Source: Candidatus Poribacteria bacterium (GTDB lineage Bacteria; Poribacteria; WGA-4E; WGA-3G). From it: 64,000 nucleotides of DNA. The translations under genes and the position numbers were made by a program. The stretch is taken from assembly GCA_965197475.1 (NCBI GenBank), contig CBDANF010000003.1, positions 1,568,001 through 1,632,000 of the forward strand. The letters are read 5' to 3'. Below the pieces are notes generated by a model that did not search any database, was not told where the DNA came from, and saw only the letters and a program-made list of their open reading frames with translations. Below are positions 22,523-32,313 of the stretch, piece after piece; within the stretch, counting starts at the first letter, position 1, and each line of letters begins with the position of its first letter.

Positions 22523-23803
22523 ATGAAAATTTTGTCTATAGTATCAATCGTAGTTCTAATTGCTTTAGCTGCTGGATGCGATGAAATGCAACAGCAAGTT
22601 ATAAAACCTGTGATGATGCCTGACGACGAGGATCCAAAGGACAAACCCGCTGTTGAGACCGAAACTCCAAAGGATGATCCCAATGTTGATGACGAGGATC
22701 CAAAGGATGATCCCCTTATTGACGACGAAGATCCAAAAGAGGATCCCCCTGTTGAACCTGAAACGCCCGCCGCAGCGTTTGTAAGTGCGACACCCTCAAG
22801 CGGAGATATATCGGAAGACGGTAGTATCAGCCTCACATTTGACAACGACCCTGGGGACGTAACAGTTAGTACAGGTACAGTCGCAGGGGTTGGTGAATCG
22901 CGGACTATCAACGGTCCTTTCCCCGTTGGTGCGCTTGCCCTTACAATCGCGTGGACAAACGGCAACGGAAGCCACACGCTTAACTATAACGTTATTGCCG
23001 TAGATGTTACCCCACTAGTGGTCACCTCCAGCGATCCTATAGATGGTACAGTAGATGTTGACCCCACCGAAGTGTTTGAGAACGGGATAGAGATCACCTT
23101 CAGTAAACCTGTCACCGGAGACCTTAGGCTTATGGATGGCGACGATGATGTCGGTTGGACAGTTGCCTTTGAAGGGGATAGAGTCACCCTCACAGGGAAT
23201 GCTGGGCAAGAGCTCAGCCACGAAACGATGTACGAGATCGTGGGGACTGTCAGCGATAGTGCTGACAACGAAGCCGAAATCAGCATCACCTTCACAACCG
23301 AATTAGCACCTGCACCGCCCCCTACGCCTGTGACACTGGATCCGGGAGAAGGATTAAGTATCGGTGCCGAAGCACCAGATTTTACGTTGCCTGACGGTAG
23401 TGGAACCAACCACACCCTTTCGGACAGCATCGGTAGCAGTAAAGTGGTGCTCGTGTTCTTTAGGGGCAAATTCTGACCGGAGTGTAGGAAGCAACTCGTC
23501 GAGTTGCAAAAAAACTACGATGAAATTATAGAAGCAGGCGGATCACCTATCGCTATCAGCGTTGATGGCACCACTACCACCCAGGAAACAGTTGATAGGG
23601 ATAGTCTCACGTTCACCGTGTTATCTGATAGCGGCAAATCGGCAATTTCTGCTTACAACGTTGTATCTCAAAGTAATACCAATCTTGCCCGACCTTCAGT
23701 CTTTATCATTAAGACGGATGGGACGATTGGATGGAAATCTCTTGATTCTGAGTATTCAAGGGTTGCTACTTCCAGCATTATAAGTGCATTGGAAGATCTC
23801 TAA
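22523..23803 (+). CDS. Selenocysteine-containing lipoprotein: acidic repeats, Ig-like domain(s) and an AhpC/TSA redoxin domain (UxxC)
   Basis: Lipobox AAGC; APDFTLPD...VLVFFRGKF-TGA(23474-6)-PECRKQLVELQ continues in frame into the ORF at 23504; hairpin GCAACTC-GTC-GAGTTGC just downstream. Confidence 0.85.
23491..23507 (+). promoter_or_regulatory. Candidate bacterial SECIS element
   Basis: 7-bp stem with a G-first loop (GTC), 21 nt after the in-frame UGA. Confidence 0.7.
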
Positions 23804-23892
23804 TATTTCTTTTCGCAATGAGTATTATTTGACGAAAATATCATAATGTGATTTTTTGCATCACGATTTATTAATATGATTTGCAATACTGG

Positions 23893-23928
23893 AAAAAGCA
23901 GTCTATGACTACACATAGACTGCTTTTT
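23893..23928. terminator. Bidirectional intrinsic terminator-like hairpin
   Basis: AAAAAGCAGTCTATG-ACTACA-CATAGACTGCTTTTT. Confidence 0.65.
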
Positions 23929-24199
23929 GACTTGACAGAAATATGTAAATTCTGCTATAATACAATGTGGGAAATATGTTATTTGCGTAGCAAACGTAAC
24001 TTGTGTTCAGCAAGCCTTAATTGGCGTTGCATGTCTTTCAAGTTACGTATAAACCTTTGATTTCTTATCTTAGCCATTGCTTGCTTATGGCATATTTGGT
24101 TTTTGGTCAAAGCCACGATTGACACCTCCCATACTTGGCAGTGTTTGTTTGCTTAGCACTGCCATTCTTTTTATCCTATTATAATTATAACATATATTC

Positions 24200-25028
24200 T
24201 TCATATCAGGAGACGTGTATATCACATTTAGAAAATATACGTTGGGGTAACAATCCAGAGTGCCCACATTGCGGTAGTTTCAAAATTAATCGTAGGAATG
24301 AAACCGAAACAGGTAAAATTGGTAGATGGGGTTGTCAAGAATGTAGAGCATCGTTCCGTGTGTTGCATGGCACCTTGTTTCACGGAACTAAAATACCTCT
24401 TCGAAAGTGGTTTTTAGCAATATCTTTGATGATAAACGCTAAGAAAAGTTTATCCAGTCATCAATTAGCACGTGATTTGGAATTGAATCAGAAAACGGCA
24501 TGGTCTATGATGCAAAAAATCCGTGCGGAGATGGCAACGAAAGGTAATACGTTGTTGAAAGGTATTATTGAGGCAGATGAAACATATATAGGCGGCAAGC
24601 CAAGAAAAAGGAATAAAAAGGAGGATCGAGAACCTGTCAAGCGTGGTCGTGGCACATCAAAAACTGCAATTATAGGTGTTGTTGAGAGAGGCGGTCAGGT
24701 TATTGCTAAAGTAACGGAGAATTTGACAGGTCGTGATATACTTAAGTTTATTAGGAAACATGTTAATTTGGCAGAATCTGAGTTAATGACTGATGAATTC
24801 AGGTCATATCAGCGTGTTGGCAAAGAAATAAAGCATCACATCATTAACCACAAGGAGCAATATGTAGATGGTGAAGTTCACACAAACACAATAGAAGGCT
24901 TTTGGAGTTTATTAAAACGTGCTTGGTATGGAACGCATCACCATTATTCTGTGACGTGGACACCTCTATATGTGGCAGAGGCATGCTATAATATAACTAC
25001 CGAGAAACCAACATCTTTGAGAAGTTTC
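24200..25028 (+). pseudogene. IS1595 (ISXO2-like) transposase remnant
   Basis: CPHC, IEADETYIGG, TDE and HTNTIEGFW motifs; the native N-terminus (MDLxKVMERFP in the other two copies) is missing and there is a 1-nt deletion near 24990. Confidence 0.8.
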
Positions 25029-25469
25029 TCACCGAAAGTATAACGTGAGAAATCTGAAAAATAAAAACTTCCAAGTCCAAAACGACTTATTGCGAAAAAT
25101 AATGCCGCACTAATTGCAAAATAAATTAAACAAGTATTTATTGCAATTTCGTTTTCTGTGCCTTTATATTTATAATAACGTTCTAAATCGCCTATTCCAA
25201 GAACAAAAAAACTGGTGATAAAGAAGTTGCAACAAAACAGATTCTTATTAATATTGTGAATGACCAATGCAAAAATTTACCAAACATGTTGAATCCTCCA
25301 AAGATGGATTATTACGAATTACATAAATATAACACGTTGGTAAATTATATCATACTGGACAATATATTGCAAGTTGCAATCATGTAGATTTTTACAAAAT
25401 TTTCTTTTTCAGGTTTTTGACATGAAAATTGCCATAAATCCAGTCTGTATATGCGTTTTCGCTTGACAA

Positions 25470-25775
25470 TCATGCTGCATACTGATATAATATATATGGA
25501 ATTTTGATGGTTTTTGAAAGATGATTTAATTTCGTTTTTGCGTCTTTATCATCAAGTGAAAATCCGAGATTTTTTTCAATATTGCTGATATGATATTCTT
25601 TTATAATCTTCAGCAATCGTTTTTCTTGGTTTATTTCACGTATCTGATTTTCCAGTTCCAACCTTTCTTTTTGCATTATGAAAAGCGGATCGTTAAATAG
25701 TTCGTCCGCATTTTTAAATTCTATAATAAGATCTTGATATATAAAAGTGATCATGGTTTGTTTCCTTTTATTCAA
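25470..25775 (-). CDS. Hypothetical protein (AT-rich, coiled-coil)
   Basis: 101-aa ORF between IS1595 elements. Confidence 0.4.
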   Translation of the reverse strand: MNKRKQTMITFIYQDLIIEFKNADELFNDPLFIMQKERLELENQIREINQEKRLLKIIKEYHISNIEKNLGFSLDDKDAKTKLNHLSKTIKIPYILYQYAA

Positions 25776-26013
25776 GGCACTTTAATCAACTGTAGGAGCC
25801 GTTTGCTCCTGCAGTTGTTGTGCTTTGAATAGATTTAAAATTTTGTATTCTTTAAGTATATCATATTTTCGATCAAAAGCCTACAAAATTTCACTACGCC
25901 TAAAACTATTCGCAGCATTTATTTTTTAACGCAATGAGTAGTTTTGGACTTGATAAATTTGAGAAAAATTTTTCACTTGACAAAATCCTGCCAGTATAGT
26001 ATCCTATTAACAT

Positions 26014-26092
26014 CACGAATTTTGGTAGAGAATGTTAGCCGCGTCGCAAGGCGCGGTCTCTACCTCAACCGCCTAACATCGGAAAATTCGTG
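26014..26092 (+). ncRNA. Predicted pseudoknotted 5' leader RNA
   Basis: Four complementary pairings plus a GCAA tetraloop, directly downstream of TTGACA-17-TATCCT (25977-26005). Confidence 0.5.
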
Positions 26093-26205
26093 TGTGTGAA
26101 TTCGTGAATCAATGCAACACATTTCATATATTTTATGGACTCACACAATGGAGTCTTTGCATCTAAAACCCCATTGTGCTGTGTCCTATGCCAAAGGAGT
26201 TTAGG

Positions 26206-26668
26206 ATGCACAAAAAAGTTGGACCTGGTGGCGTTATTCTTAATCCTGTAAGCACACCACCGTGGGAATCACCAATAGATGAGGTTATAATACCTCCAGC
26301 ATTGTCACGTCCAGATGAATTTAAAACCAACTGGAAACAATTGTCGTTTTCATTCAAAGGTAGAATAAACCGAAAAGACTTTTGGATATATTTCTTAGGT
26401 ACTGGTTTATTATACATAACTTTTTGGGGCATTTTTGATATATACAGTAGGTGAAATTGCGTATTACGCTTTTATGATACCAATTAGTATCGTGAAATTC
26501 TTCTGGTGTGATAACGCTGTTATCGTGAAACGATGCCATGATTTTGGTAGATCTGCTTGGTATCTTATCCTATTTTACATACCTCCGATTGGTATAGTCA
26601 TTTGGTTTATGCTTGCTTTCAGTAAAGGTGATCCCGAACCAAACAAGTATGGCAACCCACCTAAATAA
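26206..26668 (+). pseudogene. DUF805 (YhaH-like) membrane protein, frameshifted near 26430
   Basis: FSFKGRINRKDFW, VKRCHDFGRSAW, KGDPEPNKYGNPP. Confidence 0.8.
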
Positions 26669-26717
26669 CCCAACAACGAGGGGACTCTGTCCCCTCTAAC
26701 CACAAAGGAGAAATCCG

Positions 26718-26969
26718 ATGAATAATTTAGTCCAAGAACAACAAGGACAACTTCAACGAAAAGAAGATATTCAGAAAGGAGTAGCAGAACTTTTAATTAC
26801 TCCACTTCTGGATGACCTTGAAAAAGCATATAACGATTTTAAAAGTAAAGATTTAAAATCTATCCATCAACTAACACAGGCTTTGAGTATATTTGTGAAA
26901 AAGACAAATGAAATTAATTCACAAGTTAGTTATGTGAATAGTGTTCTTAATTATCTTTCACAGAATTAA
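26718..26969 (+). CDS. Small helical hypothetical passenger protein
   Basis: AAGGAG RBS, 83 aa. Confidence 0.6.
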   Translation: MNNLVQEQQGQLQRKEDIQKGVAELLITPLLDDLEKAYNDFKSKDLKSIHQLTQALSIFVKKTNEINSQVSYVNSVLNYLSQN

Positions 26970-27132
26970 CCTTTTGACACATTTCATCAATAAGATGAAG
27001 ACCTTTGTTAAGTCTTTTTGTGTCACCGATATTCGTTCTTTTTACTAAATCAGTCATAGGACCGCGTAGGAATTGGATATGTTGTTCTTTACTGCGTGGT
27101 CCTTCTTTTCTTACTTCAATTTGTTCACTCAT
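26947..27132 (-). CDS. Small hypothetical protein coupled to the transposase stop
   Basis: ATGA overlap with the transposase stop; 61 aa. Confidence 0.4.
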   Translation of the reverse strand: MSEQIEVRKEGPRSKEQHIQFLRGPMTDLVKRTNIGDTKRLNKGLHLIDEMCQKVNSVKDN

Positions 27133-28009
27133 CTCATACTTTCATTGACAAACTTATCAAAGATGCTGTCAACGCTCCTATAGTTATACTTATAGCACGC
27201 TTCCGCCACATATAGCGGTGTGTATCCTGTCTGATAGTGGTGATGACTTCCATACCAAGCGCGTTTGAGAAGCGACCAGAAGCCCTCAATCGTGTTCGTA
27301 TGGACATCACCCTCAGCAAACTGCACCTTGTGGTTGATAACAGCGTGCTTCATTTCTTTCCCAATAGCGTTGTAAGCCTGATATTCATCGGTTATTAGTT
27401 CCGATTTTTTAGGTTTACAGCACTCCGAATAAACTCAAGGATAGTGCGTCCTGTGAGGTTGTGTGCCACTTGTGCGACAACCCTACCTCCACGCTGCACT
27501 GCTCCTATTATAGCAGTTTTTTCAGTGCCTCTGCCACGTTTATGTGGTTCATCATCTTCACGTTTGTTCTTTTTACGAGGTTTACCGCCAATATAGGTCT
27601 CATCTGCTTCAATGATACCTTGTAGTAAAGCCCCGCCTTTCTTCGCCATTTCAGCACGGATACGAGTCATTATAAACCATGCTGTCTTTTGATTCAAGTC
27701 TAAATCGCGCGCAAGTTGATGACTTGACAAACTTTTCTTCGCATTCGTTATCAACGAAATAGCTAAAAACCACTTCTGTAACACTACCTTTGTCCCGTGA
27801 AACACCGACCTGCACGTCACCTTGAAACTCACTTGGCACTCGTGGCAGTTCCAACGACCGATACGACCGATCTTTGTCTCCTCACGCCTGCCCACATGAC
27901 CGCTTTCACAATGCGGACACACAGGTTTACCTCGCCAACGAATCTTCTCTAAATGCGAAATACAACTCTCTTGATCCGGGAAACGTTCCATCACCTTCAA
28001 CAAATCCAT
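27129..28009 (-). pseudogene. IS1595 transposase, frameshifted in an A run near 27405
   Basis: ORFs 27395-28009 and 27129-27353 join into a full-length homologue of 29870-30751. Confidence 0.88.
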
Positions 28010-28068
28010 CAGATAACTCCTTGAAATAGGAGTTGCTTTTTCTGACGGACTTCTGATACAATATCAGA

Positions 28069-28138
28069 TAAGATTAAACCTTCAGAAAGCAACTCTGCTT
28101 TTTGGGTTAATTGGGAGGCTACAACCTCCCTTTTTTCT
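28069..28138 (+). ncRNA. Predicted antisense RNA to the transposase leader (element 2)
   Basis: TTGCTT-18-TACAAT promoter (28033-28062); terminator GGGAGG-CTACAA-CCTCCC-TTTTTT; homologous unit in element 3. Confidence 0.55.
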
Positions 28139-28227
28139 TATCTATATTATACCATATAAACCCAGTGGACACAAGGCTTTATAGCGATTTTTAAAATTTT
28201 TTATCAAGTCCAAAACTACTCATTGCG

Positions 28228-28772
28228 TAGAATTTTGGAGTGAGGGCAACCGACTTGGGGATGAGGTTCGTAAGACATACCAAGATAAGTACGGAGACTC
28301 ACAAACTACGCCACCGATGCACGTAATTGCCGAGTACGTCAATGCAGAGGCAGAACAAAATGAACGTTTCAACGAAACGTACTTAAACCAACAGATTACG
28401 CAAGGGAAACGCGCACGTGCAATAACCCGTATCTCACCTGTCGCGATTGTCCAACACCTTTTCGAATCTTTTGCCGGGACAGGGTTAGAACGGCATCTGC
28501 AATTTATTGAGAATGTGAAACGTTATGCTCGTGAATATCGAGATTTTGTAATTGATACTGACAGGGCGGATCCGATCAGCCTTCATGCTATTGGGGTGCC
28601 TGAGGGTATGTCGCAAAAGCCTGTCAGTCCAAAGGCGATTCCCAAATTTAAAGATAAACTCAGTCTCAACCGAGATTTCAACGCTGCGGCGATGGACTTA
28701 CTACTGTTGGTGCTGTTTCTAGTCGTGCTGTTTTCAGGGGCGTATCTTGCGTTTGTCCGCGTTGAAGTTTGA
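28228..28772 (+). pseudogene. C-terminal remnant of an ABC permease-associated (DUF3526-like) protein, truncated by the IS
   Basis: ITRISPVAIV...GTG...HLQF, terminal helix LLLLVLFLVVLFSGAYLAFVRVEV; frame is open from the TIR. Confidence 0.6.
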
Positions 28773-28988
28773 AAATAGTTTAGGCAAAAAATTCACTCAT
28801 TTGGTGGATAGCTCCCAGAGCGTGCCTGCTGCTTTCAAATCAACACTTAGTGAACGGATAGCAAACGTTGAATTGACACTTGTAGGTTTCACTTTGTTCA
28901 ACCTAACTTACATGATGAACCAACTTTTATACAGCACTCACGTTGTAGTACGATACATTTTTTTAACACCTTTGCACTTTTAGCTCAG

Positions 28989-29109
28989 CAGAACTTACGC
29001 AAATTGGGCAGAAAAAGGAAATATTGGACTTAAAAAGTCGTTATTTAGGTATTTTAACCCCCTAAATCCCTCTTATCAAGGGACTTTTGAACCTAATGCG
29101 TAAGTCCTA
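28989..29109. mobile_element. MITE with (C/T)AG(G/A)ACTTACGCA ends, copy 1
   Basis: 13-bp TIRs, flanking direct repeat GCTCAG; similar to 37897-38018. Confidence 0.8.
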
Positions 29110-29357
29110 GCTCAGTATGAGCACTAATTCAATTAATTTCGTGCGATTTTCCATTTTTACTATCCTTTTACGTTTTGCAGACTCTATTTCGTAACACAAC
29201 AAAAATTGGAGGAATTGAAAATGACAACCACATTGATTATCGGAATAAGTAGTTTTGGACATAAGAAAAACAGCATAAAATCAGACATAGACTGACATCG
29301 TAAGGGCTTCCTGACGAGGAAGATAATTGTTAGACCATTTCTTTTGATGGGAATTGG

Positions 29358-29480
29358 TTATAGATTGTGTTTAATCTTAAGTAGATAATTTTCAATAATC
29401 ATCATAATTAAACGCGATTCTATCACGTTTTGTCCTGCTTTTATTTCGTTGAGCAGGAACTGATTATTTTGGTTATACAT
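29358..29480 (-). CDS. 40-aa small ORF MYNQNNQFLLNEIKAGQNVIESRLIMMIIENYLLKIKHNL
   Basis: Near-perfect SD AAGGAGGTGA just upstream of the ATG; below the ORF-track cutoff. Confidence 0.55.
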   Translation of the reverse strand: MYNQNNQFLLNEIKAGQNVIESRLIMMIIENYLLKIKHNL

Positions 29481-29519
29481 AACTATCACCTCCTTTTATT
29501 TGAGTTAAAAGAGGTGGTC

Positions 29520-29614
29520 TAACAATCGCTTAACAATCGCTTAACAATCGCTTAACAATCGCTTAACAATCGCTTAACAATCGCTTAACAATCGCTTAAC
29601 AATCGCTTAACAAT
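29520..29614. repeat. Perfect 11-bp tandem repeat (TAACAATCGCT)x8 plus a partial unit
   Basis: Counted directly. Confidence 0.97.
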
Positions 29615-29724
29615 TAAAGCATTAAAAAGGAAGTTAATCAAGAAAAAGTAGAAAAGTGCTGTAAATGTAGATGGTTATTGACTTTTTCCTTGATTTAAAT
29701 GGTAAGAAATGGTATAATATAGGC

Positions 29725-29806
29725 AAGAAAATAGGGGGCGGACACCCCCTATTGAACCGAAAAAGCGGAGTTGCTTTTTCTAAGTTCTATCTTATCTATA
29801 TCATAT
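29725..29806 (-). ncRNA. Predicted antisense RNA to the transposase leader (element 3)
   Basis: Minus-strand TTGCTT-18-TATACT (29842-29813); terminator hairpin 29730-29753 with U tract. Confidence 0.55.
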
Positions 29807-29869
29807 TAAGATAGTATAGCACAATCTTTCAGAATAAAGCAACTCCTTTTGACATATAGGAGTATTCTG

Positions 29870-30751
29870 ATGGATTTAATCAAGGTTATGGAGAGATTCC
29901 CAGACCAGTCATCCTGTATTGAGTATCTTGAGAAGATACGATGGAAAGGTAAGCCTCATTGCCCACATTGTGGGATTACCGATGTTTTCAGGCGTAATGA
30001 GACGGCAACTGGTCGGATTGGTCGTTGGAATTGTAATGGTTGTAAGGCAACCTTCAAGGTTACTCAAGGCACAGTGTTTCACGGGGCTAAGATCGCACTT
30101 CAAAAGTGGTTTCTGGCTATTTCACTAATGGGAAACGCAAAGAAGAGCTTGTCCAGTTATCAGTTGAGTCGTGATTTAGACCTGAATCAGAAGACGGCTT
30201 GGTTTATGATGCAACGCATTCGTGCTGAAATGGCTACTAAAGGTCAAACTCTGCTGAAGGGTATTATTGAGGCAGATGAGACTTATATAGGGGGCAAACC
30301 TCGGAAAAAGAACAAGCGCGAGGACGATGAACCCGCCAAAAGAGGAAGGGGAACATCAAAATCCGCTATTCTTGGCGCAGTTGAGCGTGGAGGTAAGGTA
30401 GTAGCTAAACTTGCTGATGATTTAACGGGAAGGGGTATCCTGGCGTTTATTCGGGATGCTGTCAAAATAGATGAATCCGAACTGATAACCGATGAATATG
30501 CTGCTTACAATGAGATCGGAAAGCAGATAAAACATCGGGTTATCAATCACAAAGAACAGTTCGCTGATGGGGATACCCACACGAACACTATTGAAGGTTT
30601 TTGGGCGTTGTTGAAACGCGCATGGTATGGACAGCATCACCACTACTCTACTGGGTATATCCCGCTATATGTGGCTGAGGCTTGCTATAAATATAACTAC
30701 CGGAATGTGGATAGCATATTCTGGAAATTTGTTAATGAAAGTATGAGGTGA
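29870..30751 (+). CDS. IS1595-family (ISXO2-like) transposase, intact
   Basis: CPHC zinc ribbon, HTH, IEADETYIGG, ITDEY, HTNTIEGFW; AGGAG RBS. Confidence 0.93.
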   Translation: MDLIKVMERFPDQSSCIEYLEKIRWKGKPHCPHCGITDVFRRNETATGRIGRWNCNGCKATFKVTQGTVFHGAKIALQKWFLAISLMGNAKKSLSSYQLSRDLDLNQKTAWFMMQRIRAEMATKGQTLLKGIIEADETYIGGKPRKKNKREDDEPAKRGRGTSKSAILGAVERGGKVVAKLADDLTGRGILAFIRDAVKIDESELITDEYAAYNEIGKQIKHRVINHKEQFADGDTHTNTIEGFWALLKRAWYGQHHHYSTGYIPLYVAEACYKYNYRNVDSIFWKFVNESMR

Positions 30752-30893
30752 AAAAATGACTAAAGAAAAACAAGTCTGCCAAGAATGTGGAAACAAAAAG
30801 GCCCGCCTACCTGTAAAAAAAAACAGATGGTAGACCTATTGAACCAATTAAAGCAATATGGAATGGAAGATTTAGGGAATATATCCGAAAAAA

Positions 30894-31178
30894 TTAAGTG
30901 TTCGTCCGAGCAACCCTAATCATATCGTCTAAAGTTTCTATTGATACTTTTAAATCTGAGATGATATTTTGTATATCAGTTTGGAGATTTGGTGGAATTG
31001 CACCGCTTTCAACGATCAAACAGCATTTACAAAGTGGTCGAATCTGTAAGGCACGGACATCTTTGGGGTTAATTTCTAATGCTGTTTCTACATAAGCGAG
31101 GGCATCAACAAAATTACCTGTTCTGAATTCATTGAGGCTAAGTCGGATTAACTCAGCTGCTTGTCTGGTGGATTTCAT
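30894..31178 (-). CDS. Small TPR-like passenger protein
   Basis: ALAYVETALEINPKD TPR pattern; likely ATG at 31178. Confidence 0.55.
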   Translation of the reverse strand: MKSTRQAAELIRLSLNEFRTGNFVDALAYVETALEINPKDVRALQIRPLCKCCLIVESGAIPPNLQTDIQNIISDLKVSIETLDDMIRVARTNT

Positions 31179-31189
31179 GGTTTTCTTCC

Positions 31190-31477
31190 CTATTTGTTGG
31201 CATGTTCGATTATAAACACGCCAAACTGATGTCGGATTTCTTTTGGCATTGAAGTGTCGAGGGTAGTCCACCCGAATTCTTGATTGGAAAGAACCCAATT
31301 TCTTAAATCTGAAGTGAGTGGATACAGGAAATGTTCGTTTTCAATAGCATTAACATACATTTTCCACATCTTTTTAGTATGTTCATCGCTTGATTGATCC
31401 ATCTTTTCTTTGTCAGCTCGAAGATGTGTTACCATAAAAAATACTACGATGATAACAAAGACACTGAAAATTATCAT
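31190..31477 (-). CDS. Small membrane-anchored passenger protein
   Basis: N-terminal hydrophobic helix; AAGGGG RBS; 95 aa. Confidence 0.6.
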   Translation of the reverse strand: MIIFSVFVIIVVFFMVTHLRADKEKMDQSSDEHTKKMWKMYVNAIENEHFLYPLTSDLRNWVLSNQEFGWTTLDTSMPKEIRHQFGVFIIEHANK

Positions 31478-31732
31478 ATTGTACCCCTTAAATTGTAGGT
31501 TTGGTCATCCAGTAAATCCCAACTTCTCCACAAAAGAAGTGGGCATCCCTGGTGACCAAACCATAACACCTAACTTACATTAGATATGGGATACCCATAG
31601 TCCAATGGTGTTATAGTTTGGTCTGTTAAGAATTCTACAATTTTAAGAAGGGGAATGTCAAGTTAAAGGTGGGAATTTTGAAAAAAGTGGAGAAAAAAAT
31701 GAGAAATCTAATGTCCGAAACTACTTATTCCG

Positions 31733-32313
31733 TTGAAAAATGAGAAATTGCTCTCTGCGAAAGCGTTTGATAATCGTGTCGGTGTTGCACTTGTGATTGA
31801 CGCACTTTTGCGACTTGAAGAGCATCCGAATACCGTTATCGGGGCAGGGAGTGTGCAGGAAGAGATCGGATTGCGAGGCGCAAGGACAATGGTAGCAAGT
31901 GTGGAACCTGATCTCGCTATTGTACTTGAGGGACCGCCTGGAGATGATACACCAGGATTAAGCGTCGGATCAACACAAGGGAAACTTGGCAGCGGTGTAC
32001 AAATTCGGATAATTGATTCTTCAATGATTGTCAATCCGAAGTTGGCAGATTTTGTGATTGAGACAGCGAAGCAACATGAAATCCCGTATCAACTCGGTGT
32101 ACGTCAATCCGGCGGGACAGATGGTGGCGCAATTCATCAATTCATCAATTCGGCAGAGGGGTGCCTTCCGTTGTGCTTGGCATGCCATCGCGGTATATCC
32201 ATAGTCATGTCTCAATTATTAACACTGATGACTACACCGCAGCGTTGGATTTGACGATGCATCTTGTGCGTGAAATTGATGCATCTGTTTTGGAAGGATT
32301 TCTGTTCGGTTAG
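31733..32313 (+). pseudogene. M42 family metallopeptidase, N-terminal half deleted at the IS end and frameshifted by an 8-bp duplication
   Basis: AKAFDNRVG, VQEEIGLRGA, GGTDGG; ATCAATTC duplicated near 32136-32151; RYIHSH follows in another frame. Confidence 0.85.

Follow-up and report, generated by a model that had tools for sequence, protein, structure and literature searches.

The leaders of a group of IS1595-family transposase genes contain a real, conserved RNA control module. Within the mRNA leader, a segment that we call B can pair either with an upstream segment, A, or with the Shine-Dalgarno (SD) sequence of the ribosome-binding site (RBS), and on the opposite strand the same B contains the -35 box of a promoter whose predicted product is a short antisense RNA. 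Judging from the sequence, the leader is probably an antisense-operated attenuator of the plasmid type that was acquired by one clade of IS1595 elements.

The window, by which we mean the whole stretch of 64,000 nucleotides that was analysed, belongs to a genome of 5.7 Mb with relatives among Candidatus Poribacteria, which are sponge-dwelling bacteria. Three IS1595-family elements lie inside the window:

23814-25094: element 1, IS1595 family
25930..28227, minus strand: element 2, IS1595 family, end to end; four copies in the genome
27129..28009, minus strand: element 2 transposase, frameshifted near 27400 (Pfam)
29241..31732, plus strand: element 3, IS1595 family, end to end; six copies in the genome
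29870..30751, plus strand: element 3 transposase, 293 aa, Zn-ribbon and DDE_Tnp_IS1595 domains (Pfam)

Pfam models PF12760 and PF12762 score above their cut-offs in elements 1 to 3, which gives the Zn-ribbon and DDE_Tnp_IS1595 combination of the IS1595 family. Terminal inverted repeats of ~20 to 30 nt are found at both ends, as expected for the family, and element 3 carries a transposase and passenger ORFs along with its repeats. IS1595 elements generate an 8-bp target duplication. Identical 8-bp flanks were found at 10 or 11 of 44 end pairs by eye and at 10 by script, and most of the remaining flanks, including those of elements 2 and 3, match the flank of another copy. About a quarter of the elements thus retain matching flanks, and the matches across copies are expected from rearrangement between copies (or from assembly); the flanks of element 2 match copies at C3:3190844 and C3:3422850. 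The ISNha5 subgroup of IS1595 has ends beginning with CGG and carries passenger genes; the ends here start with CGGAAT or CGCAAT and passenger ORFs are present. The close subgroup comprises 40 loci in this genome, and ~35 further loci at 25-29% identity make up a second, distant IS1595-like group, with ends that begin GGCTCATG, a very short leader and no module.

Several features of these elements deserve mention in their own right. All four copies of element 2 share one transposase frameshift yet occupy different sites, a pattern that points to transposition in trans or to a programmed frameshift. In element 3, the left end holds an 11-bp tandem repeat of about nine units (29520-29615) upstream of the promoter, and complete copies of element 3 vary from 2437 to 2492 nt, probably through the number of repeat units. 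Element 1 has neither the leader module nor a transposase start. It has instead, at 23930-24200, a plus-strand sigma-70 promoter facing a minus-strand 45-aa basic ORF with a good SD, a start near 24116 and a hairpin upstream, a layout that resembles a type I toxin-antitoxin or small-regulator pair and occurs once in the genome. Three other loci of the same genome (L076, L080 and L081) have the same terminal repeats and promoter, no transposase at that end and unrelated ORFs, and are likely non-autonomous passenger carriers.

The first-pass annotation had proposed the switch from elements 2 and 3, and every part that it claimed was found where it had been placed. The leader of element 3 contains:

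29690..29718, plus strand: transposase promoter, TTGATT-17-TATAAT with TG before the -10 box (promoter scan)
29760..29782, plus strand: target hairpin of an upstream A-run and segment A (core 29768-29777), the pre-emptor for B (folding, covariation)
29829..29847, plus strand: extended B, the anti-RBS (outer arm 29829-29835, core 29836-29847)
29858..29872, plus strand: SD (29858-29863), spacer and ATG (29870)
29813..29842, minus strand: antisense promoter, TTGCTT-18-TATACT with TG before the -10 box (-35 box 29842-29837, -10 box 29818-29813; from the sequence)
29730..29753, minus strand: antisense terminator stem, U-tail to ~29725 (terminator scan)
29725..29806, minus strand: predicted antisense RNA, ~82 nt, two hairpins (deduced from promoter and terminator)

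The leader of element 2 contains:

28146..28174, minus strand: transposase promoter, TTGTGT-17-TATAAT with TG before the -10 box (read from the sequence; absent from the scan list)
28086..28103, minus strand: target hairpin with segment A (core 28095-28086; folding, covariation)
28028..28047, minus strand: extended B, the anti-RBS (core B 28039-28028; folding)
28007..28021, minus strand: SD (28021-28016), spacer and ATG (28009; from the sequence)
28033..28062, plus strand: antisense promoter, TTGCTT-18-TACAAT with TG before the -10 box (-35 box 28033-28038, -10 box 28057-28062)
28113..28130, plus strand: antisense terminator stem, U-tail to ~28139 (terminator scan)
28069..28139, plus strand: predicted antisense RNA, ~71 nt (deduced)

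The transposase mRNA is predicted to start near 29725, ~145 nt before the ATG, in element 3 and ~130 nt before the ATG in element 2; the -10 columns of this promoter are almost invariant in the leader alignment. The antisense promoters of both elements fall under the 9-of-12 threshold of the promoter scan and hence were not listed by it. A terminator scan of 27900-30000 gave 6 sites, compared with 1.4 in shuffled sequences, and both antisense stems are among them, on the antisense strand. The A:B duplexes of the two elements reach -20.4 and -21.0 kcal/mol, values matched by 0 and 2 of 1000 shuffles, and segment A also has a local pairing partner immediately upstream. Folding of the leaders gives z scores of -4.8 and -5.1, and the leaders and predicted RNAs of both elements fold better than all 200 shuffles.

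For comparison, we cut 84 leaders from homologue loci after excluding 17 loci with an insertion-broken leader or no module, three without a clear start and seven that were not transposase starts. Clustering at 90% left 45 leaders, and the removal of two mis-cut rows and addition of three by hand gave 46, of which 40 were aligned; the other six contain long insertions and were used everywhere except in the alignment. Later, 46 candidates came from matches to a leader covariance model, 35 of them new at 90%, for a total of 81 non-redundant leaders. These 35 are not fully independent, because the model that found them contains A:B, and they were anchored on the TTG of A. Some leaders carry small palindromic insertions: a 60-nt near-perfect hairpin in the B:SD loop of L014:120-339, which retains the stem; a 150-nt insert at the SD of L007; and one 125-nt insert within A that is common to two genomes (L040 and L044).

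The pairing of A with B is conserved and covaries across IS1595 leaders, a check that the first-pass annotation had itself named. On the 40 aligned leaders, 85.4% of cells are paired compared with 79.1% after shuffling (0 of 500 shuffles), and two-sided changes number 28 compared with 10.4, although shuffle statistics overstate significance because the leaders are related. Slid registers pair at most 51.5% of cells. Cognate A:B pairing beats the non-cognate mean in 43 of 46 leaders and in 32 of the 35 further ones, 6 of which show a new A-U to G-C swap outside the -35 hexamer; L235 has a one-base insertion on both the A and the B sides. Mismatches lean toward the mRNA strand, with G-U outnumbering A-C 19 to 10 in the 46 leaders and 18 to 6 in the 35, and over the whole duplex the energy is better on the mRNA strand in only 26 of 46 and on the other strand in 18. 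All of these counts are inflated by the relatedness of the leaders. By definition, A and B form an inverted repeat, and as DNA such a repeat could be bound by a protein, either the transposase or a host factor. The wobble bias and the compensatory changes point to RNA pairing instead, and the A-to-B distance varies from ~47 to 106 nt, so we consider a protein site extremely unlikely, as we do a role of the antisense RNA as an activator, taken up below.

On the opposite strand, 77 of 81 leaders have a TAnnnT -10 box at a distance of 17 or 18 nt from the -35 box; it is mostly TACAAT or TATAAT and is preceded by TG in 54 of 81. A control that read A's own TTG as the -35 box of a second sense promoter found only 6 of 81, and such a promoter was rejected. 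Among 46 leaders the antisense terminator stem has 24 distinct 5' arms, 39 have a richer U-tail on the antisense side, and non-canonical pairs are wobbles 13 times on the antisense strand and 4 times on the sense strand. Across the 81 leaders, the antisense promoter and a terminator whose stem varies in sequence while keeping its pairing are conserved, as had been surmised from two elements. The predicted RNA has a median length of ~72 nt in the 46 leaders, and A lies inside the covered region in all 46. In most predicted RNAs the loop of a first hairpin exposes the complement of the A core and is followed by the terminator hairpin; the first loop of the element 3 RNA is complementary to A. 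We judge it very probable that the antisense RNA is made. Seven sequencing runs contain element 3, four of them RNA and all as contigs, and we compared contigs of three RNA runs and one unlabelled run at 90% likeness. The RNA contigs, which are blind to strand, ends and small RNA, cover 20 to 23 of 30 bins at low depth, and none of them spans 29740-29824, a gap that speaks neither for nor against the RNA.

As had been proposed, the predicted RNAs of elements 2 and 3, 71 to 82 nt long, cover A, and they stop ~50 nt before the SD; because of this distance, the RNA would have to act through refolding. The earlier description of an antisense switch over the RBS is true only of the switch, because the RNA, with 5' ends at ~29806 and ~28069, does not overlap the SDs. 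Could the RNA act mainly in trans as a short anti-SD, with its B-like loop pairing directly with the SD? This loop has the sequence of the B core and thus is complementary to the SD. Such contact would comprise only 5 or 6 pairs, against full complementarity at A, and A tracks B even where the SD does not, which makes this mode very unlikely. Another candidate, a short ORF starting in A, was by eye not conserved across leaders, and element 3 has no ATG there.

A natural experiment bears on the double use of B. In four leaders (L013, L047, L089 and L095), a duplication has split B into two copies. SD pairing has been lost from the upstream copy, which retains the -35 box and the -10 box that goes with it. 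Pairing with both the SD and A is found in the downstream copy, and in L013 this copy and A have changed in step. Because the duplication separated the two roles of B, as a -35 box and in SD pairing, both appear to be under selection.

The fold in which B occludes the SD is longer than the first-pass annotation had it. The B:SD pairing that it described is present, and in addition the bases 5' of B pair with the spacer and start codon in an outer helix, so that the occluded region also includes the start codon. For 78 of 81 leaders, this extended OFF hairpin has a predicted energy of -5 kcal/mol or better. Taken by itself, the inner hairpin falls short of -3 kcal/mol in 20 of 81, and the strengths of the inner and outer helices trade off (rho -0.44). 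The core B:SD helix shows no two-sided covariation beyond shuffles in the 40 aligned leaders (74.6% compared with 74.0%, 162/500), as expected because the SD is fixed; 10 of the 40 have U in place of C opposite G, and a test of cognate B:SD pairing was mildly positive (55 of 80 leaders). An inner stem of -10 kcal/mol or better occurs in 13 of 81 leaders, and 12 of these have a U-tail, defined as six or more U in the eight bases after the inner hairpin, compared with 16 of the 68 with weaker stems. Because they combine a strong SD hairpin with a U-tail, these 12 variants look like transcription attenuators. In elements 2 and 3 the inner stem is weaker (-7.0 and -7.6 kcal/mol) and the U-tail is broken; both are of the outer-helix type. 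The term translational switch consequently fits elements 2 and 3 and not the whole family. Together with its 3' extension, segment A is similar to the stretch from SD to ATG and may have originated as a copy of it.

Folding of a chain that ends just after B predicts that A:B dominates in 74 of 81 leaders, with a probability of 1.0 in elements 2 and 3. This predicted folding order supports the anti-anti-SD logic with which the switch was originally credited. Among the full leaders, 53 of 81 have an ON fold no more than 2 kcal/mol away from the ensemble (the gap is 2.3 in element 3 and 0.35 in element 2), and ON is predicted to be a first-formed, near-even state, as for a pre-emptor. At equilibrium without the RNA, element 3 is OFF by 2.3 kcal/mol and element 2 is near even. 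Unaided relaxation of this kind could make the leader a cis-only kinetic timer, in which nascent ON relaxes to OFF, there is no functional antisense RNA and the promoter-like appearance is a by-product of B, of which the -35 box is part. The -10 box and its spacing are nevertheless kept in 77 of 81 leaders and, where B is split, go with the separate -35 copy, and the terminator has antisense polarity. A timer could act alongside the RNA; that it acts instead of it seems to us improbable.

When the region covered by the RNA was masked, the SD was harder to open at equilibrium by more than 1 kcal/mol in 23 of 46 leaders; the cost stayed within 1 kcal/mol in 22 and fell in 1. The last number matters for the possibility that the RNA activates in the manner of Asr9 of ISPpu9, which raises transposase translation (PMC8450116): an activating RNA would need to cover B, which the predicted RNA does not, and masking eased opening in that single leader. 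Activation is included in the extremely low probability given above for a protein site. The equilibrium cost changes from 7.2 to 8.2 kcal/mol in element 3 and from 7.6 to 7.9 in element 2, and because masking barely changes SD opening at equilibrium, the ON state of these two elements would depend on folding kinetics. The same small change is compatible with repression mainly through RNase III decay of the duplex or collision between the convergent promoters, with A:B setting basal translation. Full complementarity over 70-82 nt and promoters that lie face to face also agree with this, as does the precedent of IS256, whose antisense RNA lowers transposase mRNA (PMC10266640). Decay or collision would leave unexplained why the covered region includes A in all 46 leaders, why its complement is placed in the first loop and why some SD hairpins are U-tailed, and we judge it unlikely as the main route.

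We favor a model in which the RNA represses through the A/B/RBS switch, and we regard this as likely. In the nascent mRNA, B would emerge before the SD and pair with A, so that the SD and ATG emerge free (the ON state of the folding predictions). The convergent promoter, with its -35 box in B, would make a two-hairpin RNA of 70-82 nt complementary to the first part of the mRNA. By analogy with known systems, the first loop of this RNA would contact the loop of the A hairpin and sequester A, which would leave B to pair with the SD, the spacer and the first part of the ATG (OFF). The output in elements 2 and 3 would most likely be a block of translation, and in relatives with a long stem and U-tail it would most likely be termination just before the ATG. 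The predicted RNA loop is common to all seven subtypes in this genome; cross-subtype duplex energies carry little information on loop recognition. Because the RNA can diffuse and the loop is shared, repression should, by analogy, rise with copy number, and because the genome holds about 40 copies, any such brake must be leaky. More tentatively, we entertain the possibility that this IS clade built a plasmid-grade copy-number controller out of its own parts, in which A is a decoy of the RBS region, B is both anti-RBS and -35 box, the output is tuned between translation block and terminator, and ~38 copies form one pool and take a family-wide census of the transposon load.

The distribution of the module follows that of its host elements. 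The leader covariance model has 38 matches in the genome, 37 strong and one truncated, all at close-subgroup IS1595 transposases, and the module is present in 38 of the 40 close copies. In the phylum it matches 65 of 121 genomes: the family to which the window belongs accounts for 61 (of 81 genomes), a second family for 3 (of 19) and the rest for 0 (of 20). Of 71 model hits, 42 have IS1595 transposase sequence within 1 kb downstream. The remaining 29 have no transposase within 1 kb and open no ORF longer than 147 aa, and several of them are interrupted at the SD by a different insertion or start with the first residues of the transposase. Among the 71 hits, the module was not found before genes other than the IS1595 transposase. 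In a narrow search outside Poribacteria, 0 of 20 homologue loci matched the model, and most of the loci inspected have a short leader with the -35 box within the terminal repeat. An exact three-motif pattern, likewise searched narrowly, gave 1 metagenome stretch, located before an IS1595 transposase, and 0 viral ones. Rfam gave no match at the gathering score in 23500-32000 of the window or in six loci of relatives. In a quick tree built from 69 transposases, one clade of 44 (support 99) contains the 41 module-bearing rows, and the distribution needs three changes, perhaps one gain and two losses. One module-free relative (L147) has, after its promoter, an ORF of ~60 aa, hydrophobic and then charged, 260 nt before the transposase.

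Self-limitation of insertion sequences is known for few families, and in the tested cases of repression the antisense RNA covers the start region or lowers the mRNA. If our model is true, the module would instead repress by refolding at a distance, and our searches found no such control for its family. The 81 natural variants, with their compensatory changes, split B segments and both outputs, form a series for the interconversion of translational and transcriptional attenuators, and they are also a source of compact RNA switches. The module bears as well on why sponge symbionts tolerate dozens of active copies.

The comparison with known systems draws on the portions of the cited papers that describe them. 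IS10 RNA-OUT and IS200 art200 are likewise cis-encoded antisense RNAs against a transposase leader. RNA-OUT acts in trans, with repression that rises with copy number, and blocks ribosome binding by its own duplex; art200 begins pairing loop to loop, covers the 5' untranslated region and the first three codons, and acts independently of the SD-hiding stem in the tnpA leader (PMC4513863). A direct block of that type would require overlap with the SD or the start codon, and the RNA predicted here overlaps neither. Antisense RNAs have been reported at staphylococcal transposase leaders (PMC2873960). Asr9 of ISPpu9 (IS110 family) also changes the structure of a transposase leader, with the opposite sign, since it helps open the RBS (PMC8450116). 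Within the searched portions of the literature, including PMC4513863, PMC5703833, PMC2873960, PMC10266640 and PMC8450116, a repressing refolding switch on IS1595 is undescribed, and a search of non-subscription papers for IS1595, antisense RNA and transposase returned nothing on topic by title or abstract start.

The closest parallels come from plasmids. The pT181 RNAI is an 87-nt RNA that frees the 5' arm of an RBS-containing stem-loop from its pre-emptor, whereupon the stem-loop terminates transcription (PMC5703833). With A as pre-emptor and B as 5' arm, the layout of pT181 repC (and of pIP501 RNAIII) fits the 12 U-tailed relatives with strong hairpins. Elements 2 and 3 differ from it in their weaker inner stem, broken U-tail and added outer helix over the start codon, and unlike in pT181, a single family seems to contain both types of output. 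Elements 2 and 3 are best matched by the RNAI/rep leader of pSK41, one of the RepA_N staphylococcal plasmids. Its RNAI is a ~83-nt counter-transcript with two stem-loops, complementary to the rep leader well upstream of the RBS, and is proposed to induce an RBS-hiding stem-loop without termination (PMC5703833). The sequence signals of the module match what pT181 and pSK41 have in common, namely a counter-transcript unit complementary to the 5' end of the leader and off the RBS, and a pre-emptor and an RBS stem that exclude each other through one shared arm. pSK41 targets a replication initiator, whereas the gene downstream here is an IS1595 transposase in a poribacterial host, and the likeness is drawn from layout rather than from sequence homology. 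The module works like the antisense attenuation of pSK41 and pT181 and is not a member of those plasmid systems.
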